In this document: positions 8,897 to 56,770 of the stretch, piece by piece
How the letters are laid out: each line of letters starts with the position of its first letter
Numbering within the stretch: the first letter of the stretch is position 1
Assembly (NCBI GenBank): GCA_021802485.1
Contig: JAJZXF010000003.1
Location: 1,636 to 65,635 of the forward strand
Length of the DNA: 64,000 nt
Source: Actinomycetes bacterium
GTDB lineage: Bacteria; Actinomycetota; Acidimicrobiia; Acidimicrobiales; JAJZXF01
Direction of reading: 5' to 3'
Program-made: the position numbers and the translations under genes
Notes under the pieces: generated by a model
What the model was told of the DNA's origin: nothing
The model's database searches: none
The model's input: the letters and a program-made list of their open reading frames with translations, nothing else

Positions 8897-10714
8897 ATGG
8901 CCTACTGGACCCCAACCAGCTGGGCTACCGCAGTGCTCAAGTACTTGGGCGCTCCGATCACCCAGAACAACATCGACAACATCACTCGCTGGATGCGTGC
9001 GGAAAAAGGAGCCGACTGGTTCAACCGGAACAATCCCTTGAACTCATCGGTCGGCACGGACTCCATCGACGGCACGGGTTCGTATCCGAACCTCGGTGTA
9101 GCTGCAAGGAACGTCGCGGGAATGATCAACCAGGGGAATATGAGTGGGATCAAGCAGGCACTCATGTCGAACGCACCGCTTCCCACCTTCTCTGCAGCGG
9201 TGGTCGAGTCTCCGTGGGCGAGTTCACATTACGGCGGAAACCCCTCCTACTTCACCGACGTTCCGCCCTTGCCTAACACCGAAGCGCCAGTGTCAGCAGG
9301 AACTACTGACCTCACCCCCCCCACCACGGTGGACAGCAACCCCACGACCTCAACCGGCACAGGATCGACCGGCACAGGATCGACCGGCACGGGAACCTCA
9401 GCGGGCACTTACACCGTTCAGGCAGGCAACACTCTCTGGGGTATTGCGAAGCAATACGGCATCCCAGTTGCCGCACTCATTGCGGCCAACCCGCAGATCA
9501 CCAATCCAAACCTGATCTTTCCCGGAAACGTAATCAATATTCCCCAGCAGTCCTCATCTCCCAGAACCCCGCCACCAAGACCGAAACCGGTAACCAAACC
9601 CATTACAAGACCCGGATCACGAGGTTCCGGCGGGCGGATATTCGTCGACATAAATGCAAACCTTTCAATGGCTGGGCGGATGCAGGCGCACGCCAACCAA
9701 CTCGGCGATATCCGCCTCAGCTTGCTCAGCGTCGCTTCACGGACTTCACCGCCACCACCACAGGTAAGTGGACTGCTCAATTCGCTCAACAGACTTCTAG
9801 ACCAGCTGAATACGGTCACGACCAACCTGCACGCTCAGGCAAAAGGAGTCATTGACAACGCTCGCGGTCTCGCAGCCGAAGAGCGCCACGCAACAAGCAA
9901 CTATACCAATTTGGGACACCAGATCACATGGCCTGATATGATATGGGACGTCCAGTACGCAGGCAGTGTGCCTGGCTTTCTTCGGCCCCTCTTCGAGTTT
10001 GTCGACGCGGAGCTGGCATCCCTGGTGTCACTGCCAAAGACCTCGTTCCCAAGCGTTCTGCCATTGCACACTGCACCCGTAGAGGTGCCAACGGCGCCAG
10101 TCGTTTCGTCAACGCCAGTGTCGGTCGGACCAGTCGGATCCGGTATCCTTGCCACCTCGATCGCGACCGCAGGTGTGACGGTGGCACAAGAGGAGGCGAA
10201 CTTCGCCAAGTCACAGATCTATTGGAACGGTCCTTACGGACGGGTGCTGCTCAATTCATCACAATGGCTGGGGGGCCATGGGATTGATGTGCACTCCGAC
10301 GCCGGAACGAACTATAAGGGGCATTATCAGTGCGTCACACTCGTGACGGACCTCTTCCGTGAGAGGGGTTGGATTCATGGCTCGTGGTTGGGCAACGGCA
10401 ACACCCTCCTCAATTCTCTGCCGCCTGGAGTAACGAAACAGCTCAACGGCCACATCACCCATCTCGTCCCCGGAGATGCAGTAAGCATGCAGGTCGCACA
10501 TGACGGTGTAACGGACCAATACGGGCACGCCGTTGTGGTTAACCAGATCATCAAGTGCTCCAACGGCTACATGGTGCAGTTCGTCAATCAGAATTCACCA
10601 ACCGTCTACACCTACGGCACGCTGAGTCCTTCCGGAGTTCTGACCATGAACCCCTCAGGCTCCTGGTCCTACGACATTATTGGTGTGGCACACGCCACCG
10701 CCAACACGGGCTAA
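8897..10714 (+). CDS. LysM + CHAP domain peptidoglycan hydrolase without recognisable signal peptide
   Basis: 605-aa ORF, 46 nt after the WXG-like gene. LysM: YTVQAGNTLWGIAKQYGIPVAALIAANPQITNPNLIFPGNVINIP. C-terminal CHAP-like domain has a Cys in HYQCVTLVTDLF and a His in YGHAVVVNQI. The N-terminal 130 aa is unassigned (NNPLNSS motif). A helical middle segment is present. The N-terminus MAYWTPTSWATAV is not Sec/Tat-like. Confidence 0.8.
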   Translation: MAYWTPTSWATAVLKYLGAPITQNNIDNITRWMRAEKGADWFNRNNPLNSSVGTDSIDGTGSYPNLGVAARNVAGMINQGNMSGIKQALMSNAPLPTFSAAVVESPWASSHYGGNPSYFTDVPPLPNTEAPVSAGTTDLTPPTTVDSNPTTSTGTGSTGTGSTGTGTSAGTYTVQAGNTLWGIAKQYGIPVAALIAANPQITNPNLIFPGNVINIPQQSSSPRTPPPRPKPVTKPITRPGSRGSGGRIFVDINANLSMAGRMQAHANQLGDIRLSLLSVASRTSPPPPQVSGLLNSLNRLLDQLNTVTTNLHAQAKGVIDNARGLAAEERHATSNYTNLGHQITWPDMIWDVQYAGSVPGFLRPLFEFVDAELASLVSLPKTSFPSVLPLHTAPVEVPTAPVVSSTPVSVGPVGSGILATSIATAGVTVAQEEANFAKSQIYWNGPYGRVLLNSSQWLGGHGIDVHSDAGTNYKGHYQCVTLVTDLFRERGWIHGSWLGNGNTLLNSLPPGVTKQLNGHITHLVPGDAVSMQVAHDGVTDQYGHAVVVNQIIKCSNGYMVQFVNQNSPTVYTYGTLSPSGVLTMNPSGSWSYDIIGVAHATANTG

Positions 10715-11126: not shown

Positions 11127-11873
11127 CTACGTGGAGGCTATCCCCACCATCGGTGCGTTCAGATGCCTTCCACCCATTGATCCGTAAAACCTAGCGTCTC
11201 CGTAGTTGAACACGCCCCCGTCCGATGCAACTGTCCAGTACCCTTGGTCATCCGGGGTGGATGCGATGCTCACCATGGGTGCGTTCAAAGGCTTTCCACC
11301 CTGTGAGCCATAGAAGTGCGCGTCGCCAAACGCAAAGACCCCACCGTCTGCTGCGACGAGAAGGTATCCCTTTCCATCAGGGGTCGGCACCATGCCTATG
11401 ACGGGCGAGTTCAGGTGCCTTCCACCCATCGAGCCGTAGAACTGAGCGGTACCAAAGGCGAACAGCCCACCGTCGGAGGCGACCAGCCAATAGCCGTTGC
11501 CACCTGGGGTTGGCGCCATGCCAACCACAGGCGCGTTCAGGTGCTTTCCGCCCATAGAGCCGTGGAACTTGGAGTCTCCGTAGCTGAAGATGCCCCCGTC
11601 TGCAGCCACGGTCCAGTACCCGCACCCGCGAGGACCAGACGCGATGCCGACCATCGGCGCGTTCAGGTGCTTGCCACCCATGGACCCGTGGAACGCTGCA
11701 TTGCCGAAGCTGAAGATGCCCCCGTCCGATGCGACGGTCCAATAGCCTTTGCCGGAGGGAGTGGCCGCCATCGCCACCATCGGTGCGTTCAGGTGCTTGC
11801 CACCCATGGACCCGTGGAACGCTGCATTGCCGTAGCTGAAGATGCCGCCGTCTGATGCCACGGTCCAGTACCC
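11127..11873 (-). repeat. 6 x 126-nt (42-aa) coding tandem repeat, diverged copies
   Basis: Period read from the protein: GYW[TL]VA[SA]DGG[ILV]F.[FY]G.A.F[YH]GS.GG..LN[AS]P[MV]VG[MI]A..P... Confidence 0.8.
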
Positions 11874-13238
11874 CATAGACGGCACAGATGAGACCTGCAG
11901 AGCGCCTGTGGCCTCGATCAGGTTGCCCTTTGTCGTGGTTGATGTGCCCGAATAACAGGGTGGGGTTGAGTAATAGTAAGAACCCAGTGCAGCGCACGCT
12001 GATGCACTTTCACATGACACGGACTGAAGGGCGTTATAAGGGGATGGAACTTGTCCAGTACCCAGGGTCGTGTCCACGTTCGGGCTGGAGACGACTGACC
12101 AGGTGGAGCCGTTGTAGGTCTCAACGAGGGTGAGAGTCGGAGAAACGGATCCAACCAGGGTGTCGACGGAACCCACCGCTGCGCAGAATGTTGCGCTCGT
12201 GCAAGATACGCTGTCCAGGAAGTTCCCCCAGCCAGGATTGGGATTGGGATTGGGACTAGGCGTGATGGACCACGAGGAGCCATCATAGGTCTCAACGAGT
12301 GTACCCACACTATTGTAGCTGTTGACAGAGTAGGCACCAACGGCTTCACAAAACATCGCGCTGACGCACGACACTCCGGAATACAAATAATTACGTGATG
12401 TGGAGCCACTAGGGTTGGGATTGGGCATAACGCTCCACGTGAAGCCGTTGTAGGTTTCGATGAGACCTTTAGTTGAGTTAGGCAGGTCGTAACCGCCAGC
12501 AGCCATACAGAACATGCTGCTGGCACACGACACGCTTAGCAAGCGGACAATACCATTTCCTTCGTTGGGACTCGGTGTAATCGACCAGGAAGAGCCATTG
12601 TATGTCTCGACGAGGGTAGCACCAGCTTGGTTGCTGGCAGTCGTGTAATAGCCAACGGCTTCACAAAACTTTGCGCTGGAACACGACACGCCAGTCAGAA
12701 TGTCTTGATCGGTTGCAGATGTGTTAGGGCTGGGCGTAATCGACCAAGACGAGCCGTTGTATGTCTCGACGAGGGTATGATATGGGGAAACAGCTCCAGT
12801 GCTCCAAATGCCGACAGCGACACAGAACGACGCGCTCGGACATGACACAGCGTTGAGCGAGCCATAGCCGTGCCCATTCGCTATTTTGGGACTGGGCATA
12901 ACGCTCCACACGTGACCGTTGTAGGTCTCGATGAGCGCGCTATACGTATTCGAACTAGCTGTCACACTAGTTGGCCTCGGCCCAACTGTGACACAGAATG
13001 ATGAGTTCACACAGGAGATGCCACGAAAATAAAATCCGCCAAAAGCCAAGCCAAACCGTTGTGCCTGCGGGCTTGCGACAATCGCCCACGTTCCCGCTGT
13101 ACCTGAAGCAGCTGCGCTCGCCATTGGCATCCCCGCGAGTCCGGCCGACGCCAGAACAACGCAGAGGCAGGTGCCGACCATTGCCGCTGCGCGATAGATC
13201 GATCTTGGCGCGGAAGACTCCTTCGAATGAGGGTCCAT
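11127..13238 (-). CDS. Secreted two-module repeat protein (Cys-pair repeats + six GYW/ASDGG 42-aa repeats)
   Basis: ORF 11127..13250, preferred ATG at 13238 just after the upstream stop. Signal-like N-terminus ([29 protein letters not shown]). Carries about 8 repeats of the ..SC.S..FC.AVG ... [17 protein letters not shown] type, then 6 repeats of [36 protein letters not shown]. Confidence 0.85.
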   Translation of the reverse strand: [703 protein letters not shown]

Positions 13239-13240
13239 CG

Positions 13241-15657
13241 CTAGCCCCACTGCTCAGCAAGGGTCTGGCTGATGCCCGAGGCGCTCATCTCGAATCCTGT
13301 TGCGAGGCAGCTGGCAGAAGAAGCACACGTCACGCCGTTGAGGGCGTTCATCGTAGAACTCGGGTTCGGGGTCGTCGGGATTGACCAAGAAGTTCCGTTC
13401 CGGGACTCCGCGAGGGTCTCTGTCGCGCCCGATGAGTCGACGTAGCCACCGACTGTCATACACGAACTCGACGACGAACACGAGACGCCATAGAGGAAGT
13501 TGTTCAGTGACGTAGAGGTGTTTGGACTTGTCTGGGTGACCCACGATGTGCCGTTCCAGTACTCGATGAGGGTCTGGTAGACACCTGAGGAGTCGATGTA
13601 GTCACCGACTGCTTCGCAGGAAGTCGATGACGCACATGAGACGCCGTAGAGGAAGTTGTCCTGTGACGTGGAGGTGTTTGGACTTGTCTGGATAACCCAC
13701 GATGTGCCGTTCCAGTACTCGACGAGGGTCTGTGGGGCACCTGAGGAGTTGATGTAGAAGCCCGTTGCTACACACGAGCTCGACGAGACACACGAGATGC
13801 CGTTGAGGTAGTTAGCAGAAGTGCTTGGATTCTGGCTTGTCATGGTGGACCATGATGTGCCGTTCCAGATCTCCGCGAGGGTCTCAACCGGCTGCTGGGT
13901 CCCGCTCGTGGTGGGTGCTGCCTGGGAGTCACCGACCGCTATGCAAGAAGTGCTCGACACACAGTCGACCCCCATCAACTGATTGAGCGAGGATGGAGAC
14001 GTGTCGGGATTCGGGCTGTTGACGATGGACCAGTTGCTACCGTTGTACTGCTCTATCAGGGTGTAGTCGGCGAAGCCGGTTGTGCTGAACTGGTTCGAAG
14101 GTACGTTGAAGTACGCACCTGCTGCAACACAGAAGCTAGAAGACACACACGATACTCCGTTGAGCGAGTTGTCGACTGGGGGGGTGCCATTACTCAGGCT
14201 TGTGTTATTCGGACTTGTGACTATTGACCACGTGAAGGTGCTCGAGTTCCAGGACTCAACGAGGGTCTGGAGGTAGCTGAAGTGGCCAACCACGTCGCAG
14301 CTCGTAGAGGTGGTACACGATATCGCTCTCAACTGGTCACTAAAGGATCCCTGAGACTCCGTCGTCCCATTTGCGCTTGTGGAAATAGCGAACCCGCTGT
14401 TGTTGCCGGACTCGACGATGGTCTGGTAGTCGTACCCTGGCTGAAACGATCCGTCCGCGTAGCACGAAGTCGAAGATGAACACGAGATGCCGTAGAGGTA
14501 GTTGTTCGCAGGCGCTGTGCTAGACGGCCCACCGCCCCCGTTCACGCCACCGCTCTCGTTCCCGCTGGAGATGACACTAGCGTTGTTGGCGCATGTACCG
14601 GATAGACACCAATAGTCCACCAGGGTCTGGTCAACGCCCAGACTCGTGTCGTAGTAGTAACCAGCTGCATAGCAGCCGTCACTTGAAGGACACGAGATGC
14701 CATACAGGTAGTTGTTTCCAGAGCCCACGTTCCCAGCTAGTGACCCACCGACAGCCCACTTGGTGGGAGATCCGGCCTCATATAGAAAAAGCACCTGGTC
14801 CACACCGGAGGAGTCCACGTAGTAACCGGCCGCGAAGCACTCGTTCGATGACACACAAGACACTCCATAGAGGTAGTTGTTGCCGTTGTTGGCATTACTC
14901 GAAGTCGCCACGGTCCAGCTGGTGCCATTCCAGTAGTCGATGAGTGTTTGGGCGAGGCCTGAGGAGTTGACGTAGTAACCCGCTGCGTAGCACTCGGTTG
15001 ATGACACACAGGTTGCGCTGTTCAGGTAGTTGCTCTCCGACGTGGAGGTGTTCGGACTCGACTGGATCGACACCGTTGGGGGTGAGGTTGAGCCGTTGTA
15101 CTGCTCGATGAGGGTCTGGTAGACCCCGGAAGAGTCCACGTAGTCACCTACTGCTGTACACGAAGTCGATGACGTACACGAGACGCCGTTCAGGTAGTTG
15201 CTCTCCGATGTGGAGGTGTTCGGACTCGACTGGATGATGGACCACGAAGTCCCGTTGTACTGCTCGATGAGGGTCTGGTAGACACCTGAAGAGTCCACGT
15301 AGTCACCTACTGCTATGCAGGAAGTCGATGACGTGCAAGAGACGCCGTTCAGGTAGTTGTTCTGGTTCGTACCGTTGTTCTGACTTGAGTCTTGGGCCCA
15401 GGTGGGTGGCCCTCCGGAGGTGCCGGGGGACTCGGTGGCTGCAAGGGTGGCTTTCACAGCGAAGTTGCCTGCTGAAAAACATGTAGAGCCTGAACAACTC
15501 GTGCTATAAAGAGCATTGTCTTGCGTTGCGCTAGAGTTCGCGCTCGTTACGCTGGACCAGCTCGGAGATGTTGCTGATGCACCCCCCCCAGAGTGAGAAG
15601 TGCGCTAGCTGCTATCGCAGCTGTCGCTATCGAACGTGGGAATGCCCTTTTTCGCAT
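13241..15657 (-). pseudogene. Secreted Cys-pair repeat protein split by a frameshift at a G8 tract (pseudogene, phase-OFF allele or assembly error)
   Basis: ORF 13241..15457 (738 aa) has about 14 WNGTSW...SPN...N.L.GVSC.S.T.C.AVG.Y repeats but no signal peptide. The same frame stays open upstream to 15604 and encodes another repeat. A 35-codon ORF from the ATG at 15657 (AAGAGG 8 nt upstream) encodes MRKRAFPRSIATAAIAASALLTLGG, a typical signal peptide. It leaves frame at G8 (C8 on plus, 15582-15589). One extra G would fuse both parts into an 805-aa precursor. Confidence 0.75.
15582..15589 (-). repeat. Homopolymeric G8 tract (C8 on plus strand) at the signal-peptide/mature-domain junction
   Basis: Read directly: a-cccccccc-a at 15581-15590. 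Frame analysis is given in the previous feature. Confidence 0.95.
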
Positions 15658-15993: not shown

Positions 15994-18900
15994 TCAGCGA
16001 GCCACCTGAACGAGGCTTACCCCGGAACGTTGCGCAAGGTATCCGCGCCCTGGGGGAAACCGCACAGTAGAACGCCGGGGGAACCGCACGCCGAACAGGT
16101 CGCCATCGACATCCACATCCGGCATGATCACCAAGCCGTGCTTGGCCTTTCGCATCTCAGACAGCCACCCTGCGTACGCGCGGTGCGCTCTATGGGTCTG
16201 GCAGGCGGCACAGATAATCGTCGTCTGCTCCCGGGTCTTTCGGACCAGCTTCTCGAGATGGTCAGCGACGGGTCCTTCCAACAGCTCCTCTGCATCGTCG
16301 ATGATCACCACTGTGGGAGCTACGCTTGAACCCTGCGACGAAGCCACCATGTCCAGCACCGCCGCGTAAACCTCGTCCTGGCCGCTTGCTATCGATGTCC
16401 AGGTATCCAGGGCAGTCAGCGGCGTCCTGCGCGGCGCAAGCAGCACCATCGGTCCTTCCCGGAAGGCTGCCCTCAGACCCCGGGCCAGCGTCGCAAGAGC
16501 GACTGATCGCCCGGATCCATCCGGGCCGCAGATGAGAAAGGTAGGGTTCTCATCTAGACGCACCGCCATGGGGCGGAGATCCGCGCCGTCGATAGCAAAG
16601 GGGATCCTGCGCATGGCAGAAACAGGCGCGGGGAGGACGTCCGCTGGTATATCATCGCCCAATACCTCCACCGAAGGTGCCCGCTGCCCGTCGGAAGCAC
16701 TCAAGGCAGCGCCAAGCTTCTTGATGCATTCAACCTGGGCTCTGCCTGAGGCGTCGTCTCCGAGCACTGCCACATGGATCTCCGCCCCGCTGGAGAGGAA
16801 GCCTCTCCCTGGCGGGAGATCGGCATCGCCCACGTTCCGCAGGCCAAGCCACTGGTACTCATCAGCGTCCCCCATGCGCAAGATCACCCGGCCTGGTATC
16901 GAAGCAAGAAGCCGGTTCGGCACGCCGCCCCTGCGGTCCACGCTGATCACGAGGTGGACCCCGACAGACGATCCGTCTGCTGCGATCTGGGCCAGCCGAT
17001 CGATCTGCGCTCCAGCATCAAGATCGCCGAACACATCCACAAAACCGCTGTAGCCGTCGAGCAGGAGGACCACCCACGGGCTACGCTGTCCCTCCGGTTG
17101 CCCGGAGCGGAGCTCCATGAACGAGCCCGCTGCTGCGCTCCCAAGTGCAACCTGGCGCTCGGCCACGATACGCTCCAACAGAGCGAGGATACGTTCAGCT
17201 CGCTCGATGTCGCTCGCCGTCGCGACTCCGCCGCACTGGGGCAGGGCCTCGATCGCCTGAAGCCCGCGAGTAGCGAAGTCCAGGCCGTACAGATTGAGAT
17301 CCGAGGCGCTCCATCGCTCGGAGAGCCCGGCCGCAATTGTCCGCAAGAGCGTGGTCTTGCCCGAACCTCCCGTGCCAAACACCAACAAGTGGCCCAACTC
17401 GTCAAAGTCGAGCACCAACGGATCCTGGCTCTGACTCTCAGGCCTGTCCACAACCCCAGCTACCGTCGAGAGCCGCTCCCTTGGAATGGACTCGCTCGCA
17501 AGTGTCGCTAGCGAGTAGCTCGTAGCGAGCGGATCCAGCCACGGACGTCGTGGCAAGCTCGACCCGGATGCGCTCCAGGCCTCGCACACCGCAGCCACCA
17601 ACCGTTGCAAATCGCTTTCACCGGAACGATCCGCCTCCGATTTCGGCCAGCTGATTGGCGAGGGTCCGAACGCAATGGGTCGCACGTTGACAACCGGCTC
17701 GCTCCCCGCCTCGCTACGGCGCCCTCCGACATAGGCGACCTGCACCGGGTGAATGTCGCTGCCCGAACGTATGAACGCACGGCCTACGAGGTCGTCTGGA
17801 ATGCGAGCCGCATCTGGGACAGTCAGGATGTCTACCGACTCCTGGTCGTCGTGAAAGCGCAAGGAGATCCGCACCGGGACGTTCGTGCGTATCTTATCGT
17901 CGATAATGCCCGCTGGGCGCTGGGTAGCGAGCACCAGATGTACCCCGAGTGAGCGCCCACGAGCTGCGATGTCGACCACACCGTCAACAAATTCCGGGAC
18001 GCTTGTCTTCAAGAACGCAAACTCATCAAAGACAAGCAACAACGAGGGTGGTGCATGTTCTGGATCACCCTGCTCGAAGTCGATGAGGTTCTTGTACCCC
18101 GCGGCAGCGAGGAGATGCTCCCGACGGCGAACCTCTGCCTCCAAGGACTCGAGCGCGCGCCTCGCAAGATGGCCGTCGAGGTCGGTAAAGTACCCCGTGA
18201 CATGAGGCAGCTCGGTGCACTCCTTGAAAGCCGCTCCGCCCTTGTAGTCGATGAGTACGAACGTGAGGCGCTCCGGCGGATGGGAAGCTGCAAGCGCGGC
18301 AACGAACGTCTGCAAGAGCTCGCTCTTGCCAGCCCCAGTTGTTCCACCCACCAGCATGTGTGGTCCTTCTCGCTGGAGATCGAGCACTTGTGGGCCATCA
18401 GCGTTAACACCAATGATCCCGGGAAGACCAATGCGCGATCGGGCCCACCGGCTCGCGATACCCTCTGGGGTTGGGTCCTCTAGCGCGAGAAGTTCAAGCA
18501 GGTTGACCTGGCGCGGGAGCTCGCTGCCACGACCGCCCGCAGTCACATCACGGAGCGGCGCCAGTGCCAAGGCTACCTTCTCAACCAGGCGCACTGGCAC
18601 CAAATCGGCGAGGATCCCGTTTATGGTCACCCCTTCACGCACCTGGACCAGTGACAGCTCCCCCGCATTTTCGGGCGTCGATGACAGGGTCACGAAATGC
18701 GTGCACTCCCCCGGCAGTGACCTGACCGCTTCAGACACGACCAGTGCGGTCACTCCAACCGCTGGGCCTGACTCGAGAACCCGGGAGAGCATCGGCCGGG
18801 AAAGCTCCATGTCTCCGGCTATTACGAGAAGGACGTGAGGCATATGCCTGGACTTTCCAGCGCCGAAGCCCCCTCCAGCCGGTTCCTGACGCGTCCGCAC

Positions 18901-20376
18901 TACTTCGTCGACAAGACCCAATAGGTAGTGATGATCTTCAGCGCTCGTAGAGACAGTTGACGCCGATGGCAGGAGCACCGACGTGTGGGGCATCCATGCG
19001 AGGAACTGCCACGCTGCCTCTCGCTGTGCTGGCACCAGTGCGACTATTGCGAGATCACGCGGGCTGTGAAGGCATGCCGCTCCAAGAATCAGGCTCCGGG
19101 CAAGCGCGCTGCTGTCGTCATCTGGTCCCGAAATCCCGAGAACACCTTCGCCCAATGGCACGGTTACCGGCACCGACGGGTCGATCTTGTGATCGTCCTG
19201 GATCGCATCCAACGGGCCAGGTGGGCGGTCTGGGTCAGGTGGCTGCGCTCCATCGAATCTGAGCCTGGCAGGACGGTCCGCGAGACCGACCCGTAAGCGA
19301 AGAAAGTCATCATCCGTACCTCGACGCTCCCAGAGTGGCTGCTCGAGGCGTATCGCCCGCTGTGCGAGATCCGCTGGCCCGGGGGCCGCTGAGCGTTGAA
19401 CCTGCAGGTCCCAAAGGTGAGCCTCATCTGCACTGGTACGAACTCGTTCAACCTGGCGGGCGAACCGGGTCATCGCCTTCTTGTGAGCTGACTTGCCACT
19501 CCGGCGGTCGCTCACCACCGAGATAACCGCCATGACGGGAGATAGGACAGCGAACATAAGGAACATAGCGTTGTGGGCCACCTCTGCTATCACCACGCCG
19601 AGCGCAAGAGGGATCAAAGCGGTAAGGATTGGCAGCCGCGCCTTGGTGGGTGGCTTCGGGGGGACTGGAAGCGATATGACCGGGGGATCCGATGGAGGCA
19701 CTGCGCGCGGCGGACGATTGACCAGCAGCCTCCCGTCCTGGTAAGAGGGCGCGAGTAGTGCAGGGACCGGCGAAGGCCGCACCGTGAGCAACGACCCACC
19801 GAGGTTCGCCACAGCGCCAGGAGACAAGGCAGTTGGCTCTGTGCCGATCGGACGTCCTTCAACTGCTGTCCCATTCGTTGAGCCCATATCAGAGATCCAT
19901 ATCTGATCCCCCCTCAACTGGAGCGAGGCGTGAACTGACGAGATCGACGGGTCGGGCACTAGGATCGTCGCTTGATCTCCTCGACCGATCGTGACTGGAC
20001 GGTCACTGAGATCGAGATCGTAGACAATGCCAGCGCAGGGTCCGCTCTCTACGAGTAGCTGCCACGATCCTCGCGTTGCGAGCGGGTGGCCCGCAACCTC
20101 TGGCGCAAGTGAGGCACGGGAGGCCGTAAGGATGTCACCATCTCGAAGTTCGAGATCCGCGAGCGGCGTATCAGCTTGAAGCTGCGCCCCGCTACGGCGT
20201 ACGCAAAGCGGCCCGTTCACCTCAGAGCGGCCGATGACCCGGGTTAGCGAGTCCATCAACTGCCCAGCAGTCGCCCTGCGATCGTAGGCGACTGCCACAG
20301 GCACAGCCGTACTCGGACCATCGGTCTCAACCAAGATCGACACTTCGACATGGTCCGAGATGTTGGAAGTAGTCAC
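15994..20376 (-). CDS. FtsK/SpoIIIE-family type VII secretion ATPase (EssC/EccC-like) with N-terminal ubiquitin-like and FHA domains
   Basis: 1460-aa ORF with a GTG start. aa 9-86 look YukD/ubiquitin-like (VEVSILVETDG ... LADLELRDGDILT). aa 104-200 are FHA (VTIGRGDQATILVPDPSISSVHASLQLRGDQIWISDMGSTNGT). Two TM segments lie at aa 247-290. Three P-loops: GGTTGAGKS (677-685), GTGGSGKT (1001-1008), GPDGSGRS (1283-1290). Walker B-like motifs: LLLVFDEF, VVLLLDGY, VVIIDDAEE. Confidence 0.9.
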   Translation of the reverse strand: MTTSNISDHVEVSILVETDGPSTAVPVAVAYDRRATAGQLMDSLTRVIGRSEVNGPLCVRRSGAQLQADTPLADLELRDGDILTASRASLAPEVAGHPLATRGSWQLLVESGPCAGIVYDLDLSDRPVTIGRGDQATILVPDPSISSVHASLQLRGDQIWISDMGSTNGTAVEGRPIGTEPTALSPGAVANLGGSLLTVRPSPVPALLAPSYQDGRLLVNRPPRAVPPSDPPVISLPVPPKPPTKARLPILTALIPLALGVVIAEVAHNAMFLMFAVLSPVMAVISVVSDRRSGKSAHKKAMTRFARQVERVRTSADEAHLWDLQVQRSAAPGPADLAQRAIRLEQPLWERRGTDDDFLRLRVGLADRPARLRFDGAQPPDPDRPPGPLDAIQDDHKIDPSVPVTVPLGEGVLGISGPDDDSSALARSLILGAACLHSPRDLAIVALVPAQREAAWQFLAWMPHTSVLLPSASTVSTSAEDHHYLLGLVDEVVRTRQEPAGGGFGAGKSRHMPHVLLVIAGDMELSRPMLSRVLESGPAVGVTALVVSEAVRSLPGECTHFVTLSSTPENAGELSLVQVREGVTINGILADLVPVRLVEKVALALAPLRDVTAGGRGSELPRQVNLLELLALEDPTPEGIASRWARSRIGLPGIIGVNADGPQVLDLQREGPHMLVGGTTGAGKSELLQTFVAALAASHPPERLTFVLIDYKGGAAFKECTELPHVTGYFTDLDGHLARRALESLEAEVRRREHLLAAAGYKNLIDFEQGDPEHAPPSLLLVFDEFAFLKTSVPEFVDGVVDIAARGRSLGVHLVLATQRPAGIIDDKIRTNVPVRISLRFHDDQESVDILTVPDAARIPDDLVGRAFIRSGSDIHPVQVAYVGGRRSEAGSEPVVNVRPIAFGPSPISWPKSEADRSGESDLQRLVAAVCEAWSASGSSLPRRPWLDPLATSYSLATLASESIPRERLSTVAGVVDRPESQSQDPLVLDFDELGHLLVFGTGGSGKTTLLRTIAAGLSERWSASDLNLYGLDFATRGLQAIEALPQCGGVATASDIERAERILALLERIVAERQVALGSAAAGSFMELRSGQPEGQRSPWVVLLLDGYSGFVDVFGDLDAGAQIDRLAQIAADGSSVGVHLVISVDRRGGVPNRLLASIPGRVILRMGDADEYQWLGLRNVGDADLPPGRGFLSSGAEIHVAVLGDDASGRAQVECIKKLGAALSASDGQRAPSVEVLGDDIPADVLPAPVSAMRRIPFAIDGADLRPMAVRLDENPTFLICGPDGSGRSVALATLARGLRAAFREGPMVLLAPRRTPLTALDTWTSIASGQDEVYAAVLDMVASSQGSSVAPTVVIIDDAEELLEGPVADHLEKLVRKTREQTTIICAACQTHRAHRAYAGWLSEMRKAKHGLVIMPDVDVDGDLFGVRFPRRSTVRFPPGRGYLAQRSGVSLVQVAR

Positions 20377-20927
20377 GATACCACTCCGTCCCTGTGCGCC
20401 TGACGCTCGCTGTAGGCGGCCCTCAGCGCCCTCAGCGCCCTGTACGTTAGCGCCCGGACGGCGTCTTCATTCGAGTCGAGCACCACAGCGGTCTCCGCCA
20501 CGGTCAGCTCCTGGAGAAAACGCAGTTCAATCACACTCCTCTGTCGTGTTGGCAGGGACGCCAAGACGCTGAGCGCCTCCGCAATCCGACCCCGGCTATA
20601 CTGCGCCTCACCGTCTTGGCCGCTCTCGATCAAAGAGTCGGCCACCAGCAATCGCTCATCAAGAGGAATCAACTCGGGTCGCCTGCGGCGGCTTTCACCT
20701 ACAACCAAGTTGTATGCGATCCTAAAGAGCCATGCTCGCTCAGGAAGGCCTCGATCCTCGTAGCGGCTGTAGGCCGCAAACGCACGACAGAACGTCTCCG
20801 CGGTGAGATCCTGGGCCGCCTGGGCTCCGACCCTACGACACAGGAACCCAAAGACGCCGTCAACGTTCTCGCGGTAGATCGCATCGAATGCGACATTGCC
20901 CACACGCTCAGCGCCCACGAGCCTCAT
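20373..20927 (-). CDS. ECF-type sigma-70 family RNA polymerase sigma factor
   Basis: 184-aa ORF. Region 2 (ERAWLFRIAYNLVV) and region 4 HTH (LPTRQRSVIELRFLQELTVAETAVVLDSNEDAVRALTYRALRALR). Its stop overlaps the ATPase GTG start (GTGA at 20373-20376). Confidence 0.9.
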   Translation of the reverse strand: MRLVGAERVGNVAFDAIYRENVDGVFGFLCRRVGAQAAQDLTAETFCRAFAAYSRYEDRGLPERAWLFRIAYNLVVGESRRRRPELIPLDERLLVADSLIESGQDGEAQYSRGRIAEALSVLASLPTRQRSVIELRFLQELTVAETAVVLDSNEDAVRALTYRALRALRAAYSERQAHRDGVVS

Positions 20928-21132
20928 CGCCAGTGCCTGAGTATGCCAGAGACCAACATCCAGGTATTACCGCCCGCTCCCATCCGACCTTTGCCAGATA
21001 GCGTAATACATCGCAATAGAGCGCTGGCAAGCGCTGCGGATCCTCGCAAGCAGTCGCAGACTCCGCACACGAAACAGAACAATCTGCTCGCTCCCGGGAC
21101 CTGCATTGGTGTCTCACAAGAGCGAATTCAGT

Positions 21133-21147
21133 GCACACAGTGTGTGC
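21133..21147. promoter_or_regulatory. Perfect 7-1-7 palindrome GCACACA-G-TGTGTGC just upstream of the kinase RBS
   Basis: Read directly. It is followed by GGAAG (21152-21156) and the ATG at 21159. Function unknown (operator or RNA hairpin). Confidence 0.25.
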
Positions 21148-21158
21148 TATCTGGAAGT

Positions 21159-22919
21159 ATGTACTCCATGACAGACAACTCAGCTGGCCAGGGCGATCTC
21201 GTGATCCCAGGATACCGGGACTTCAGTCTGCTCGGTCGCGGAGCATCGAGCACCGTTTACCGCTGCCACGACGAGGAGCTGAACAGATGGGTCGCTGTGA
21301 AGGTGTTCCTTGCGGACGATCCAGAGGATCCTGCGCGAAAGCGCTTCCGCAGAGAGCGTGAGATAACAGCGAACCTCGGCAAGCATCCACACATCGTCCA
21401 GGTGCTCGGTACCGGCTTTTCTGCTGGTGGCCTTCCCTATGTGGTGATGGAGTTATTCGAGCAGGGCTCGATCGCGGACCGCATCCAAGCTGCTGGAGCG
21501 TTCTCGGTCACAGACACGATAGACATCGGTGCAAAGATCGCAGATGCTCTGTGCGCGGCACATAAAGCAGGAGTGCTTCATCGTGACATCAAGCCACAGA
21601 ACATCCTGCTCTCAGAGTACGGACCAGCTCTCGCAGACTTCGGCATCGCTCGCTCGGCTACGAACCTCGAGTGGTCCCAGAGCCTCGAGCAGCTGACGCC
21701 GTGGCATGCAGCACCCGAGATTCTCTCAGGTGGTCCGCCAACACAAGAAGCTGACGTGTACGCTCTCGGCTCTACCCTTTATGCCATGCTCGCTGGGCGA
21801 CCTGCGTTTGCCGGTGCACCTGGAGAGTCGCTGCTTCGCTACCAGGTGAGAGCAACCGAGGAGCCGCTGCCACCACTCGCCCGTAGCGATGTCTCGCCTG
21901 AGCTGTTCGCAGTACTCGCTACAGCTATGGCAAAGGACCCGAGAGATCGCTACCGGTCCTCTGCTGACCTGCGAGATGCACTTCGGAGCCTGACCAGCGT
22001 TGCTGCAACAGCGCAAGGCTCCCCACAGAGCCCATGGGCGCCGAAAGCATCTACGCCTACACGACAGACCAGTGACTTGTCGCCAACATGGTCCAAGGAT
22101 GCGCCATTGTTTTCGGATACCCAACAACCTGCAGACCCACAAGCCCCTACCTTGCGAGATGCGCAAACTATCTTACGCAGCTCAGCAATGCGGGAACGAA
22201 CCACACCATCGGCGAAAGAGCCTTCGAACAGCACAATCGAGCGCGCTGTCGCAGGCGCCTCGCTCGAAGACAATCGCTCAGGCCCGCAGCCAGAGCTCAC
22301 ACACCAGCTGCAACCGAACCCCGAAGCCCGCTCCCCTCATTCACCCATCACAGCATCTATCCCTCTCGATCTCCAAGCTGATGGCTCAAAGACGATCACA
22401 AGGACCCATAGTTACACCTCAGCAGAGGAAGAACTACAGCCACAAACACAGAAGAAGCACCTGCGCATCGGAATCCTTGTCGCTACAGCAGCGGTGCTCG
22501 TCGCAGCTATAGCAGTGGTAGTGGTAGCTGGTTCGAGCCAGCGTGCCCCGAAGGTGATCAAGGTGTCAACCCAGCAGACCATCCCTGTCGAGACCTCAGC
22601 AGCTCCTGTCTCGCTGCATGCGACGACCTCTCCTAACGGCAGTTCAGTTGAGCTGCAATGGACGACTGGGAGCGTTCCTCCAGACGGCTACGTAGTCTTG
22701 AAGGTGCCAGGCGGTAATGCGACACCATCGCTCGTGCATCCGGGACCGAGCGCATCCGCGACCCTGTTCAACGTCGGTGGGCTGGACCCAACCACCTCCT
22801 ACTGCTTCATCGTGATCGCGCTTGTCGGCAGTCACGATGCCGAGGCGCCGTCGTGTGCCTGCATCCGCGGCGCCACCCTTTCGCCCCAGCACGTATTCCC
22901 GCATCTAAGCTGCTCTTGA
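21159..22919 (+). CDS. Transmembrane Ser/Thr protein kinase (Hanks type) with extracellular FN3-like domain
   Basis: Inside ORF 20616..22919, whose 5-prime 300 nt are antisense to the sigma gene and were rejected. Start ATG at 21159 (or 21168). Kinase motifs: GRGASSTVY, VAVKV, HRDIKPQNILL, DFGIA, HAAPE. TM segment: LRIGILVATAAVLVAAIAVVVVAG. Confidence 0.85.
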   Translation: MYSMTDNSAGQGDLVIPGYRDFSLLGRGASSTVYRCHDEELNRWVAVKVFLADDPEDPARKRFRREREITANLGKHPHIVQVLGTGFSAGGLPYVVMELFEQGSIADRIQAAGAFSVTDTIDIGAKIADALCAAHKAGVLHRDIKPQNILLSEYGPALADFGIARSATNLEWSQSLEQLTPWHAAPEILSGGPPTQEADVYALGSTLYAMLAGRPAFAGAPGESLLRYQVRATEEPLPPLARSDVSPELFAVLATAMAKDPRDRYRSSADLRDALRSLTSVAATAQGSPQSPWAPKASTPTRQTSDLSPTWSKDAPLFSDTQQPADPQAPTLRDAQTILRSSAMRERTTPSAKEPSNSTIERAVAGASLEDNRSGPQPELTHQLQPNPEARSPHSPITASIPLDLQADGSKTITRTHSYTSAEEELQPQTQKKHLRIGILVATAAVLVAAIAVVVVAGSSQRAPKVIKVSTQQTIPVETSAAPVSLHATTSPNGSSVELQWTTGSVPPDGYVVLKVPGGNATPSLVHPGPSASATLFNVGGLDPTTSYCFIVIALVGSHDAEAPSCACIRGATLSPQHVFPHLSCS

Positions 22920-27484: not shown

Positions 27485-30409
27485 TCAAAATTGAACGGTA
27501 TTGCTCGTTGCGCTCTTCCCGCCAGCAGACACGACAAGATATACCTTCACGCCAATCGCAGCGCAGCCGTCCTCGGGATGCCCAGTGGGCGGTGCCCAAC
27601 TGGCAGATCCGCTGGCGTTCGTAGAGTACCAAGCTGAAAAGCCCCCAGACCCTGGATTGACCCAAAACTGACTGGGATCGTAACAGGTGAATGTGATGGA
27701 CGAATTGGCTGGGAAGTGTGACACGACCACGTTGACCCAGTGGCATCCAGAACACCCCGGCATTGTTGAGCCATTGGAGTCGGTAGTGCTGTTGCCAACG
27801 CTGATAGTCACAGAGGGAGCAGGGGGGCATGCAGCCGTCGTCGCGCTAGCGCTCCCCGGAGCACTGGAATTGCCACCAGCATTCACAGCCACGACGGAGA
27901 GTGAGTGGCTCTGAGAACAGCTGAAGGTCTGTGTATATGAGTTGCCAACAACCGAACTCGCACCGCCTCCATCAACTGAGACGTTGTAGCTCGTGATCGA
28001 GCTTCCAGGATCGCTCGGAGTGGTCCATGTCCACGTGATCGAGTTGCCGTTTGCTGACGCAGCCACGACCGGAGTGCCCGGCGCTCCAAATGGTGTCGCT
28101 GGAGCAGCTGACGGCACCTGTGACGCGGGTGTGCACCCGAGCACATTGCAGGCTGCGACGCTCACTGTGTAGGCAGTGCCGTTCGTCAATCCTGACAGAC
28201 TCGCGGAGTAGCTCGATTGTCCTGTTGCCGCGGCGATCGTTGTGGTTGCGATAGTCGCCGGGCTGATCGAGACCTTGAAGCTAGTGACGTCGCTCCCCCC
28301 TGAACATGTTGGATCGCTTGGATTGCACGTCCATCCTACGCTGAGCTGCCCTGATCCGTTTGGCGTAGCGGTCAATCCTGTGACCGCGCCCGGTGGCTCC
28401 TGAGCGGTAACCGGATTCGACGCGTTTGACGGAAGGCTCGTCTTGTTGAGGTTGTTATCGGAGACAACGCTGAACGTATAGGTCTGGCCGAGCTGTATGC
28501 TTCCATTTTGAGAACTCACCTTGACCTGAGTCGAGGAGCCGGAGACCTTCACGTTCGCTGCCCCAGTAGCTCCAGTTCCCGACGTCGCGGCACCAGTATC
28601 GGTTATCAGCACTTCATAGGCCGTGATCCGATGCCCCTGACCATTAGCCGGATTCCAGCTGACGCTGATCGTGCCGTCATTATTAGACGACGCCGTCACC
28701 TGCGTGGGTGCGCTCGGCACTGCACTTGACGGTGTCGCATTGACCGCAGTAGACGCAGCGCTCGTGCCGACCGAGTTGGATGCAGCGACTGTAAATGCAT
28801 ACTTCGTGCCGTTGGTAAGCCCCTTCACGGTAAACGGGCTCGACCGCACCACCTTGGTCCCACTCGACCCATTGCCCGAAACGACTTTCCATACGACTGG
28901 ATAGCCGGTGATGGGGCTGCCACCGTTCGCAGAACCAGACCACGACAACGTGACGGCACGGTTACCAGCGAACGCAGTAACACTGGTCGGGGCAGTCGGG
29001 GCCTTTGGCGGCACGATCACGGTTGATGTCGGCGCTGGGGCAACACGCGTTGGAGCTGGGTTCGTGGGGTTCGCTGGAGTCGGAGCTGGCGGCGGGGGGG
29101 GTGGAGGTGGCAGTGTGATCCGCGGCGGGACGACGTTGGATATTGCAGCCGGATTGCCCTTATTGATCTCGTGGACGGCGCCTGTCGGGTTAACGACGAT
29201 TGCGTTGTTCCCGTCTGGCTGGTTCACCCATAGGTAGCCACCCTGCAGCGAGATGTGGATCGGGCCGTGTTTCCAGGGGAGGCCGATGGGAGCTGACGCC
29301 ACGTTCCCCTGGTCATCGAGGACTACGAGCTTGTGTCTGGTGAGATCGGGGACATAAACCCTCCCGTTGTAGACCTGCGGAGTGCCAAGGAGATCCTGGG
29401 GCCCGATTCCTGGAGGCTGGATCGGCGAGCTGACAGACGATACGGTCGCATTCCCCGACAGGTGAACGAGCACGACCTGGCCACTTCCCGACTCCGCTAC
29501 CGGAACAGTGCTGCCGGTCACAATCTTCGGGATTAGAACAGACTGAGCGGACTGCCTGGAAAGAGATGGGATGTGCGCAAGCGAACCGCGCGCGCCACCA
29601 GGTGCTGTGATGAACGTCCCGTTGTGGAGATCCAAAACAGCTGGCGAGTTGTCCACAAGCGAGATCGCAAGCTGCGCAGCGGCGGTCTTACGCGGCACTA
29701 CCCGGCCGCCCTTGCCAGTTCGAAGATGGCCCGAAGATACGGTTGCTGAGACCAATGACCCAGTCGCGGCGTCCACCACCCATAGTCGGCCCGTGGAACT
29801 CACGACGCCAGCAGTGAGAGTGCCATGGATATCGGTCCTCCCCAATACCCTCGTAGAGACAGGGTCAAGAGCCTCGATGGTACCCTCCTTGCGGTGGATG
29901 ATGAACACCGCGTTGGAGGCGTCTTCGACGTCGACGTTCCTTGATCGAGCGTTGCCCGCAACCCGGCGGTTGTCTTCAATCTTGAAAGCGCTCAGATTCA
30001 AGCTGCCAACGGTCCCTGCCGTCCGATCCCACAATACAGCGTTTTCCCCGGCCTGGAGGACCTCGAGGCGATGTCCCTTGGCCCCTTTGACAAGGAGCTC
30101 GAGATCAACCTTGCTAGTGGAGCCATTCGCCAGGAGAATTGCGCCGTTGCTGCTATTGCTCAACCAGCCATGTCCATCGAGGAGATTCAAAAGACTAGCG
30201 TGCTGGGCGGTCCCGAGAGCAGCAGCGAGCGTCGCTGCAAGCATGGCAACCACTACACCGAGCGCTATGAACGCATGTGAACCGCGCCTATCGGTCCGCC
30301 TTGCCAGGACTTCGGCAAGCGTGTTCCGCAACTGCACAAGTCTCCTCATCGAGTCGCGCTCACCATCGACACTCCCCATCGAGCCCCATCTCACGGACAC
30401 CACCGCCAC
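27485..30409 (-). CDS. Membrane-anchored surface protein with poly-Pro linker and multiple fibronectin type III-like domains
   Basis: 974-aa ORF with a single TM (FIALGVVVAMLAATLAAAL). An N-terminal region of about 400 aa is followed by PPPPPPPPAPTPANPTNP. At least 5 FN3-like units (e.g. PTSVTAFAGNRAVTLSWSGSANGGSPITGYPVVW) and a Cys-rich C-terminal domain follow. First gene of the MoxR/DUF58/TGase string. Confidence 0.8.
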   Translation of the reverse strand: MAVVSVRWGSMGSVDGERDSMRRLVQLRNTLAEVLARRTDRRGSHAFIALGVVVAMLAATLAAALGTAQHASLLNLLDGHGWLSNSSNGAILLANGSTSKVDLELLVKGAKGHRLEVLQAGENAVLWDRTAGTVGSLNLSAFKIEDNRRVAGNARSRNVDVEDASNAVFIIHRKEGTIEALDPVSTRVLGRTDIHGTLTAGVVSSTGRLWVVDAATGSLVSATVSSGHLRTGKGGRVVPRKTAAAQLAISLVDNSPAVLDLHNGTFITAPGGARGSLAHIPSLSRQSAQSVLIPKIVTGSTVPVAESGSGQVVLVHLSGNATVSSVSSPIQPPGIGPQDLLGTPQVYNGRVYVPDLTRHKLVVLDDQGNVASAPIGLPWKHGPIHISLQGGYLWVNQPDGNNAIVVNPTGAVHEINKGNPAAISNVVPPRITLPPPPPPPPAPTPANPTNPAPTRVAPAPTSTVIVPPKAPTAPTSVTAFAGNRAVTLSWSGSANGGSPITGYPVVWKVVSGNGSSGTKVVRSSPFTVKGLTNGTKYAFTVAASNSVGTSAASTAVNATPSSAVPSAPTQVTASSNNDGTISVSWNPANGQGHRITAYEVLITDTGAATSGTGATGAANVKVSGSSTQVKVSSQNGSIQLGQTYTFSVVSDNNLNKTSLPSNASNPVTAQEPPGAVTGLTATPNGSGQLSVGWTCNPSDPTCSGGSDVTSFKVSISPATIATTTIAAATGQSSYSASLSGLTNGTAYTVSVAACNVLGCTPASQVPSAAPATPFGAPGTPVVAASANGNSITWTWTTPSDPGSSITSYNVSVDGGGASSVVGNSYTQTFSCSQSHSLSVVAVNAGGNSSAPGSASATTAACPPAPSVTISVGNSTTDSNGSTMPGCSGCHWVNVVVSHFPANSSITFTCYDPSQFWVNPGSGGFSAWYSTNASGSASWAPPTGHPEDGCAAIGVKVYLVVSAGGKSATSNTVQF

Positions 30410-42588: not shown

Positions 42589-43458
42589 TCACACGGCAAT
42601 CCCGACGGCAAGCAACACCGCAAAAACCAGCGCAAGTACTCCCCCCCCGCCTAGGACCCCCACGAGATCGAGCCCCGATACGCCCCGTAGGACCTTCAGG
42701 ACGAGCGACACCGCAAGAGGCAGAGCAATCAACGCCACTGCTGCCCACGGCCTCACCCATGCCACCGGGCCAACGAGCGCAAATGGTGCAAGCACCACGA
42801 AAGCGTAAGAAACCCTCGTCGCCCGCGGCCCCATCCTGACCGCAAGCGTCTTCTTGCCAGCAAGCGCGTCCCCTTCGATGTCGCGCAGGTTGTTCGCCAC
42901 CAGCAGCCCAACTGCCAACAGCCCAACAGGGACCGCGGCGGCTACTGCGAGAGCCGTCAGCTTAAGCGTCTGCACGTAAGCGGTGCCGATCACCGCCACC
43001 AGCCCGAAGAAAACGAACACGAACACCTCTCCCCAGCCTGCGTACCCGTACGGGCGCGGGCCGCCAGTGTAGAGCCACCCCGCGGCGATACACGCTGCCC
43101 CAAGCACAATGAGTTGAGGGCCCACCGCAGCCGCAAGAGCGAGGCCTGCAATCCCTGCGACCGCGAAGCTCACGCCAGCGGCTGCAAGCACTGCCTTGGG
43201 CCGGGCAGCACCGGAAGCCACAAGACGCTGGGGGCCAACGCGCTCAGCATCCGCTCCGCGGACCCCGTCAGAATAGTCATTTGCGTAGTTCGTCGCTACC
43301 TGCAGAGCCCCGGCAACCACGAGGCAAGCGCCCGCCCGCCACCAGATCACCCCGCCCGAGACGCTAGCGACCGCGGTCCCGACGAGCACAGGCGACACCG
43401 CTGCAGGCAGCGTACGCGGCCTAGCCCCCCGGACCCACGCTCCAAACCCTGCGCCCAC
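42589..43458 (-). CDS. menA: 1,4-dihydroxy-2-naphthoate polyprenyltransferase
   Basis: ORF 42589..43527. Preferred GTG at 43458, downstream of the menB stop. UbiA-family motif NYANDYSDGVRGAD, multiple TM segments, men context. Confidence 0.85.
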   Translation of the reverse strand: MGAGFGAWVRGARPRTLPAAVSPVLVGTAVASVSGGVIWWRAGACLVVAGALQVATNYANDYSDGVRGADAERVGPQRLVASGAARPKAVLAAAGVSFAVAGIAGLALAAAVGPQLIVLGAACIAAGWLYTGGPRPYGYAGWGEVFVFVFFGLVAVIGTAYVQTLKLTALAVAAAVPVGLLAVGLLVANNLRDIEGDALAGKKTLAVRMGPRATRVSYAFVVLAPFALVGPVAWVRPWAAVALIALPLAVSLVLKVLRGVSGLDLVGVLGGGGVLALVFAVLLAVGIAV

Positions 43459-56742: not shown

Positions 56743-56770
56743 AGGGTACCCCCCCCCAGAAGATTGTCAA
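56743..56770 (-). promoter_or_regulatory. Promoter-like TTGACA-16-TACCCT whose spacer contains a G9 tract
   Basis: Minus strand: TTGACA (56770-56765), ATCTTCT + GGGGGGGGG (C9 on plus, 56749-56757), then TACCCT (56748-56743). It is 48 nt upstream of the protease ATG at 56695. Confidence 0.5.

Follow-up and report, generated by a model that had tools for sequence, protein, structure and literature searches.

The frameshifted gene and its parts

We analysed a 64,000-nt stretch of DNA (hereafter the window) from the assembly GCA_021802485.1 of an Actinomycetes bacterium (contig JAJZXF010000003.1, positions 1,636 to 65,635); coordinates given without a record name refer to this window. On its minus strand lies a gene for a tandem-repeat protein, gene 1, in which an uninterrupted run of eight G residues (G8) separates a predicted signal peptide in one reading frame (frame A) from the long mature part in another (frame B). 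A second repeat-protein gene, gene 2, follows (Table 1).

Upstream of the start codon of frame A, the minus strand reads GGAAAAGAGG-CTCACCA-ATG. Translation from this ATG gives MRKRAFPRSIATAAIAASALLTLGG and, after G8, the out-of-frame residues VHQQHLRAGPA before a stop; the G8 allele encodes a product of 36 aa. By inspection, the leader is composed of an n-region MRKRAFPR, a core SIATAAIAASALLTL and GGG-ASA. A Sec-type signal peptide is predicted for this N-terminus because of its charged n-region, a hydrophobic core of 15 residues, the ASA motif, and the leaders present on most members of the protein family. The run itself lies in the 5′ coding region and corresponds to codons 23–26 of the pre-protein.

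Near the run, frame B reads RTSHSGGGASATSPSW (at greater length, RTSHSGGGASATSPSWSS), and its 788 codons hold no further lesion. No ATG, GTG or TTG occurs in this frame between 15604 and the GTG at 15457. An earlier note on this DNA had described the start codon with its ribosome-binding site, the position of the run, the opening of the long frame and the lack of a start before 15457, all of which were confirmed in every coordinate. The same note had claimed that nine or six Gs would fuse signal peptide and mature protein, and edits of the run in silico bore this out, G9 yielding a fusion of 805 aa and G6 one of 804 aa. G12 is in frame as well; G7, G8, G10 and G11 leave the start codon and the main open reading frame (ORF) in different frames. 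The GTG at 15457, at which the public annotation starts the gene, is followed by no signal peptide and preceded by no clear ribosome-binding site, and the stretch upstream of it contains the tryptic peptide TSPSWSSVTSANSSATQDNALYSTSCSGSTCFSAGNFAVK.

Gene 2 starts 2 nt past the stop codon of gene 1, and GYWxVASDGGxF repeats form its C-terminus. It is possible that the frame state of gene 1 influences the expression of gene 2, either by translational coupling or by polarity.

Table 1. Features of the two-gene cassette in the window.
Feature	Position	Strand	Remarks
Shine-Dalgarno-like AAGAGG	15670-15665	minus	read from sequence; 7-nt spacer to ATG 15657
Frame A, predicted signal-peptide ORF, 36 codons	15547..15657	minus	ATG 15657-15655, stop TAA 15549-15547
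G8 homopolymer (C8 on plus)	15582..15589	minus	end of hydrophobic core, c-region Gly run
GCA TCA GCA (Ala-Ser-Ala), predicted signal-peptidase motif	15572..15580	minus	directly after the run
Frame B, mature repeat protein, 788 codons including stop	13241..15604	minus	stop TAG 13243-13241
GTG used as start in public annotation	15455..15457	minus	738-aa product, MDA8400564.1
Second homopolymer within gene 1, C7 on coding strand	14178..14184	minus	
Gene 2, 703 aa from ATG 13238	11127..13238	minus	own signal peptide, same blade repeats

The run in other assemblies of the same species

The public product of 738 aa (MDA8400564.1, ‘MAG: hypothetical protein M0008_11070 [Actinomycetota bacterium]’; MAG, metagenome-assembled genome) was used to look up further copies of the locus, and consensus assemblies only were compared. 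The exact product was found on contigs of ENA ERZ27233556, ERZ27233557, ERZ27237460 and ERZ27237490 and of NCBI GCA_027410595.1, GCA_027335905.1, GCA_028068685.1 and GCA_027410695.1, to which the members of the protein cluster added ERZ27237159 (L008) and GCA_021847875.1 (L009). G8 was present in 10 of the 10 other records of the window species (seen in our locus records L001–L009 and L018–L022). These represent at least five haplotypes and come from at least five ENA and five NCBI assemblies, made from different samples with different assemblers. Records of the species differ by 0–13 substitutions over 5.7 kb, and their flanks vary, including transposase insertions. A look-up via the 738-aa product favours out-of-frame alleles. 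This bias is limited, since an in-frame allele would top a full-length search as a protein of 805 aa, and none did.

The earlier note had regarded a homopolymer sequencing error as an equally good explanation. In that case the true run would be G9 and the gene simply intact; homopolymers are the classic sites of such errors, and the window stems from a metagenome-assembled genome. However, the equal standing of this alternative did not survive the recurrence of G8 in ten other assemblies, distinct haplotypes among them. Three other G/C runs of 8 nt in the window lie in intact ORFs, which argues that assembly did not systematically break genes at homopolymers. Furthermore, six records of a sister species (see below) have G7, likewise out of frame, and a run this short can be read reliably. 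Judged from these sequences, a one-off error at G8 appears very unlikely, and an artefact as the explanation of the locus is extremely improbable.

Three further differences between records of the species were observed. In GCA_021847875.1, the C7 tract of gene 1 is C8 (L009:2905), which is the sole difference in 3,031 bp and creates a second frameshift; this is either a second variable run or a low-coverage error. Gene 2 has a length of 703, 661, 612 or 608 aa depending on the assembly (L002, L004 and L005 are among those that vary). The variation appears to sit in the tandem repeats and could reflect either varying repeat numbers or repeat collapse during assembly. Between the window and L008, 50 of 59 differences are concentrated within 320 bp that encode the last blades of gene 1 (window 13246-13567, L008:4891-5212), a patch that looks like gene conversion between repeats or paralogues. 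The ratio of nonsynonymous to synonymous divergence (dN/dS) for this pair was discarded as uninformative, as nearly all differences lie within the patch.

A variable run in a sister species

The closest homologue of the gene 1 product, P0014, is 55% identical, belongs to a different organism, and is likewise annotated without a leader. Since the gene downstream of it is 59% identical to gene 2, the whole two-gene cassette is orthologous. In GTDB, ‘Actinomycetes bacterium FK2.bin64’ (GCA_021791755.1) stands for the sister species, to which the ENA assemblies ERZ27237373, ERZ27237422 and ERZ27237183 also belong. The DNA encoding P0014 (L011 and L012) shows a GAGGTG ribosome-binding site at a similar distance, an ATG and the leader MAHATSVTRASAKALAFAGSVLLTATAAVFL, after which comes a pure poly-G run and then, in another frame, IASASSPSWS... 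The run is found at the aligned codon, and the in-frame lengths are again 6, 9 and 12.

The lengths found were G7 in six records, G10 in two and G11 in two. They are distributed over three upstream contexts. In the context pth/L25/prs, L011 has G11, and L024, at very low coverage, has the interrupted run G5AG2. In the context flhA...csrA, G10 occurs in L012 and in L023 (= L103), and G11 in L102. In the EF-G context, L015, L016, L105, L106 and L107 all have G7 together with a repeat-collapsed short form of the gene. G7 is also found in L104, whose upstream context is lost at the contig end. L102 and L012 differ by one G in the run and by nothing else across 5,211 bp, which is, as far as two consensus sequences can tell, the signature of a hypermutable repeat.

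The genome FK2.bin64 alone holds all three upstream contexts of the cassette. Homology of the cassette, comprising the promoter, the signal-peptide gene with poly-G and the second gene, starts abruptly near ‘cgacttgacatggttgtcg’. The sister cassette appears to be the result of duplication or movement; some of its copies have collapsed to a two-blade form of 136 aa.

At 77 loci scanned in more distant members of the family, signal-peptide junctions showed no poly-G, and a run at this position is therefore specific to this clade. It appears that a small gene family of uncultured Actinomycetota has conserved a poly-G run within the signal peptide of an exported protein.

The product of gene 1

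Among 8,000 candidates scored, 3,968 homologues were found at E ≤ 0.001, chiefly from MAGs of Actinomycetota, Dormibacterota, Chloroflexota and Acidobacteria-like organisms. The best matches mostly begin with a signal peptide followed by WSxxxSPN. The repeat has the form NYLxGVSCxSxxxCxAVGxY...TLxExWNGTxWS, with a Cys pair that is invariant in each unit. That every blade carries such a pair and most family members carry leaders argues for a need to export the protein. Pfam returned only partial matches (DUF2510 and DUF6087), and a sequence search in PDB gave no match. An AlphaFold2 model built from 41 sequences (mean pLDDT 82.8) is all-beta with approx. 14–15 four-stranded units. Its best fold matches in PDB are tandem or seven-bladed propellers (Elp2, GH74 xyloglucanases, Aip1, CylK and Ycf48), with E-values of 1e-11 to 1e-8 but low global TM-scores of 0.3–0.4. 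Taken together, the product of gene 1 is predicted to be an exported, probably disulfide-bonded tandem beta-propeller.

Selection on both sides of the run and its codon composition

The repaired proteins of the window and of the sister species were aligned, and the alignment was translated back into codons. Over the 743 codons compared, dS is approx. 1.1 and dN/dS is 0.30. On the mature-protein side of the run, dN/dS lies between 0.23 and 0.34, and it is 0.49 in the signal peptide. With 8 of 23 residues identical, the leader has diverged in sequence while keeping its form, and both species share the ASA motif directly behind the run. For the 41 codons that separate the run from the GTG at 15457, dN/dS is 0.23 and 28 of 41 residues are identical. 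As no start codon occurs within this stretch in the window, it can be translated only from the signal-peptide ATG and through the run. Taken together, the codon alignment indicates that the coding sequence is under purifying selection on both sides of the run.

These values also bear on whether the public annotation is correct as it stands, i.e., whether a cytoplasmic protein starts at GTG 15457 and the signal-peptide ORF is unrelated to it. This GTG is conserved in the sister species and is picked by gene callers. Nevertheless, the 41 codons upstream of it are conserved as protein, the GTG has no clear ribosome-binding site, and the family is exported with Cys pairs in every blade. Signal-peptide ORF, ribosome-binding site and ASA motif are conserved in the sister species, too. 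We consider this alternative hardly credible.

A lone G8 run in the window is not exceptional. At a GC content of 59.6%, the window contains five G/C runs of at least 8 nt, compared to 2.3 expected under a first-order model and 5.9 expected from base frequencies. What exceeds chance is the combination of three features: the two halves of one gene change frame at this site, the orthologue has its run at the same codon, and no other Gly-Gly run in these genes is written as GGG-GGG. At the junction, the Gly run is CTG GGG GGG GG(T/C) in both species, and GGG-GGG occurs in none of the 25 other Gly-Gly runs of gene 1, gene 2 and the sister gene. Window-wide, it accounts for 5 of 119 Gly-Gly pairs, and GGG makes up 23% of the Gly codons. 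Because the other Gly-Gly runs avoid GGG-GGG and GGG is a minority Gly codon, the pure run looks maintained rather than accidental; it has been at the same codon in both lineages across a dS of approx. 1.1.

Another explanation to be weighed at this point is pseudogenisation at a hotspot: a fragile poly-G site would have suffered recent independent knock-outs, leaving decaying remnants that serve no adaptive switching. Every allele seen is out of frame, and G8 is fixed in the window species. L009 carries its second frameshift at the internal C7 run, the interrupted run G5AG2 would lock L024 out of frame, and several sister copies have collapsed to the 136-aa short form. However, apart from L009, no record shows another lesion in the 788-codon frame, and dN/dS stays at about 0.3 across a dS of approx. 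1.1, including the part translatable only through the run. In addition, both lineages have kept the run pure, even though a synonymous interruption would be easy and is usual at the 25 other Gly-Gly sites. The extra lesions of L009 and L024 may be errors, as both records belong to the FK2/MAS3 MAG series, whose titled contigs (L024 included) have a coverage of approx. 1.1–1.5x. A unitary pseudogene would be recognized by multiple lesions and relaxed constraint; found here were one frameshift, 788 open codons and a dN/dS of 0.30. A very recent inactivation of gene 1 is possible, but we regard hotspot pseudogenisation overall as unlikely.

Phase variation as the preferred explanation

Based on the anatomy, the G8 consensus, the variable sister run, the purifying selection on both sides and the exclusive use of GGG-GGG established above, we propose with a probability of roughly 0.6 that the locus is a phase-variable switch for a secreted tandem beta-propeller, operating by slipped-strand changes in homopolymer length, and that G8 is its OFF state. 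In the G8 allele, ribosomes starting at ATG 15657 would stop after 36 codons and no exported protein would be made. Replication slippage to G9 would produce the 805-aa pre-protein, to be cleaved after ASA. In general, a change by one G would uncouple the signal peptide in frame A from the mature protein in frame B, and a change by three Gs would merely add or remove one glycine in the c-region of the signal peptide. The switch probably acts on the putatively coupled gene 2 as well. For the window species we infer that switching is reversible and frequent, that a minority of ON cells exists, and that OFF is favoured in the populations sampled.

The background for such slippage may be favourable. 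Almost no Actinobacteria possess MutS or MutL, and NucS is active on transitions (PMC5290159, PMC8228993), which makes a poor correction of homopolymer indels plausible.

Several observations weigh against this interpretation. All haplotypes seen in the window species have G8, although they lie up to 13 single-nucleotide polymorphisms apart (5.7 kb). None of the approx. 22 records from the two species contained an in-frame allele. The exact proteins of 805 and 804 aa are absent from a collection of 15 billion proteins, and the full-length protein search returned no in-frame form. All six locus-by-length states are out of frame (G8; G10, G11; G11, G5AG2; G7), for which the chance is (2/3)^6 = 0.09. 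Part of the difference between G10 and G11 could stem from assembler noise, as the homopolymer is long, and several of the sister records come from low-coverage MAGs. The phase variation suggested by the earlier note is therefore borne out in part: the sister run varies between 7, 10 and 11, with one pair of assemblies differing by one G; the window species contributes an invariant G8, and an in-frame allele was not among the records. A run-length difference on a near-identical background is present in the sister species and was not seen in the 10 other records of the window species.

Further searches for an ON form differ in their weight. Protein searches with the N-terminus only were insensitive. 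One of them scored 92 candidates and found no ON form, and another was empty, missing even the known 738-aa protein, which has 34 residues in common with the query. These failures count little, and the full-length search and the exact look-ups count more. The exact DNA flanking the run had no match in the GTDB species-representative genomes, hence the representative of the window's species lacks the exact flanking sequence. A scan of JGI metagenomes by N-terminal alignment yielded two distant family members only. An alternative start for the mature frame upstream of the run was found neither in the window nor in the G11 alleles. The G7 and G10 sister alleles contain a TTG, which was rejected as an alternative start because the leader it would produce does not qualify as a signal peptide. 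Near the gene, scans for consensus promoters and terminators gave nothing useful.

That the ORF is conserved even though no allele seen is in frame could also be accounted for at the RNA level, if polymerase stutter or a ribosomal shift on G GGG GGG led to a constitutive low-level in-frame product. Formally, CTG GGG GGG fits the X XXY YYZ pattern of a heptamer, both species have a small hairpin upstream of the run, and polymerase slippage, which adds or removes bases, could rescue every allele. On the other hand, the hairpins are located at unequal distances (17 nt vs. 6 nt) and barely beat shuffled sequences (z = −1.6 and −2.0), and no stimulatory structure was found downstream (z = −0.3 and −0.6 compared to shuffled sequences). 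Correction would have to go in opposite directions, with one additional base for G8 and G11 and one base fewer for G7 and G10, which a single mechanism of ribosomal frameshifting cannot serve. Programmed ribosomal frameshifting was rejected on these grounds despite the heptamer, and RNA-level recoding as a whole is quite unlikely. One form of it would be a ‘dimmer’ based on transcriptional slippage at the G tract, in which the DNA is permanently out of frame in both species and the propeller is made from slipped transcripts only. This would explain why lengths of 7, 8, 10 and 11 are all out of frame, why there is no in-frame allele and why the ORF is nevertheless under purifying selection. In bacteria, the documented cases of productive transcriptional slippage mainly concern A/T runs, and we hold the dimmer to be very improbable.

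Neighbouring genes and other homopolymers

Gene 1 adjoins genes for an EccC/FtsK-SpoIIIE ATPase with FHA domain (1460 aa), an ECF-type sigma factor and a Ser/Thr kinase (15994-22919), and a WXG100 gene lies nearby, at approx. 5.2–5.5 kb in the window (L018:19414-19680). The neighbourhood in the window is type VII secretion-like; the sister cassettes are located beside flagellar genes instead.

Further in-frame G/C runs of 8 nt are found at 9315-9322 in a gene for a LysM protein (codon ~140), at 29094-29101 in a gene for an fn3-repeat protein (codon ~437) and at 42641-42648 near the C-terminus of UbiA. The run in the LysM gene is also C8 in two other assemblies. These three runs are suitable as error controls, and they could be additional variable sites.

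A minus-strand G9 at 56749-56757 is flanked by a perfect TTGACA and a TACCCT hexamer, approx. 55 nt upstream of an ATG at 56695. The 491-aa protein encoded from this ATG has a hydrophobic segment at its N-terminus and matches the Trypsin domain weakly. The layout resembles promoter-spacer switches of the opc/porA type, although the consensus promoter scan did not call it. The run is also G9 in L017, the one other assembly in which it could be checked. Similarly, a distant family member in a Chloroflexia MAG has C9 (L089:3750-3758) right after TTGACA and before TATAGG/TATAGT-like hexamers, approx. 170 nt upstream of a family gene with a leader; this may be another promoter homopolymer.

Implications and comparison with known systems

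To our knowledge, phase variation by homopolymers has been studied almost entirely in host-associated pathogens. Although the mechanism proposed here is well known, its setting in uncultured Actinomycetota is unusual. Judging by the isolate names FK2 and MAS3, the related MAGs probably originate from acid-mine-drainage sediments (compare PMC7779479). If the proposal is true, the use of contingency loci for surface or secreted proteins extends to free-living environmental actinobacteria, where it may be a response to phage or grazing pressure. The finding also corrects the public annotation, a leaderless protein of 738 aa with an internal GTG start, and points to a defined site where existing metagenomic reads allow heterogeneity in run length to be measured.

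The closest parallel in architecture is pilC of Neisseria gonorrhoeae and N. meningitidis, for which PMC2193922, citing Jonsson et al. 1991, describes a poly-G run in the signal peptide. According to this account, pilC resembles gene 1 in that the signal peptide of an exported protein is encoded across a homopolymeric G run, a change by one base toggling translation of the mature protein and a change by three bases altering the leader alone. However, PilC is a pilus adhesin of a Gram-negative, host-associated pathogen, whereas gene 1 encodes a probable tandem beta-propeller of an uncultured and probably environmental member of the Actinomycetota. Moreover, both phases and the switching between them were shown experimentally for pilC, while the present data comprise OFF alleles and length differences between assemblies only.

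Within the same phylum, homopolymer phase variation is established in Mycobacterium tuberculosis (10.1101/717272, PMC10334774, PMC11898584), where G/C coding runs of 7–9 bases, such as the 7C tract of glpK and the ESX-1-associated tracts, undergo reversible frameshifts in a background without MutS and MutL (PMC5290159). Unlike the run described here, these tracts are found in metabolic or regulatory genes, away from a signal-peptide junction, and their reversion has been documented in culture and in patients. The poly-G loci of Campylobacter jejuni (PMC3068675) are similar in their length of approx. 8–11 G, in their association with surface-structure genes and in their occurrence at several sites per genome; their lengths, too, differ between otherwise identical isolates. 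Yet they mostly affect glycosylation and modification genes in an AT-rich, host-associated organism, in contrast to near-identical two-gene cassettes at approx. 60% GC. Finally, the promoter-spacer homopolymers of Neisseria opc and porA (PMC3960869, PMC2193922) are relevant only to the G9 at 56749-56757, since they change promoter spacing, whereas the G8 run of gene 1 would act as a translational switch of the reading frame.

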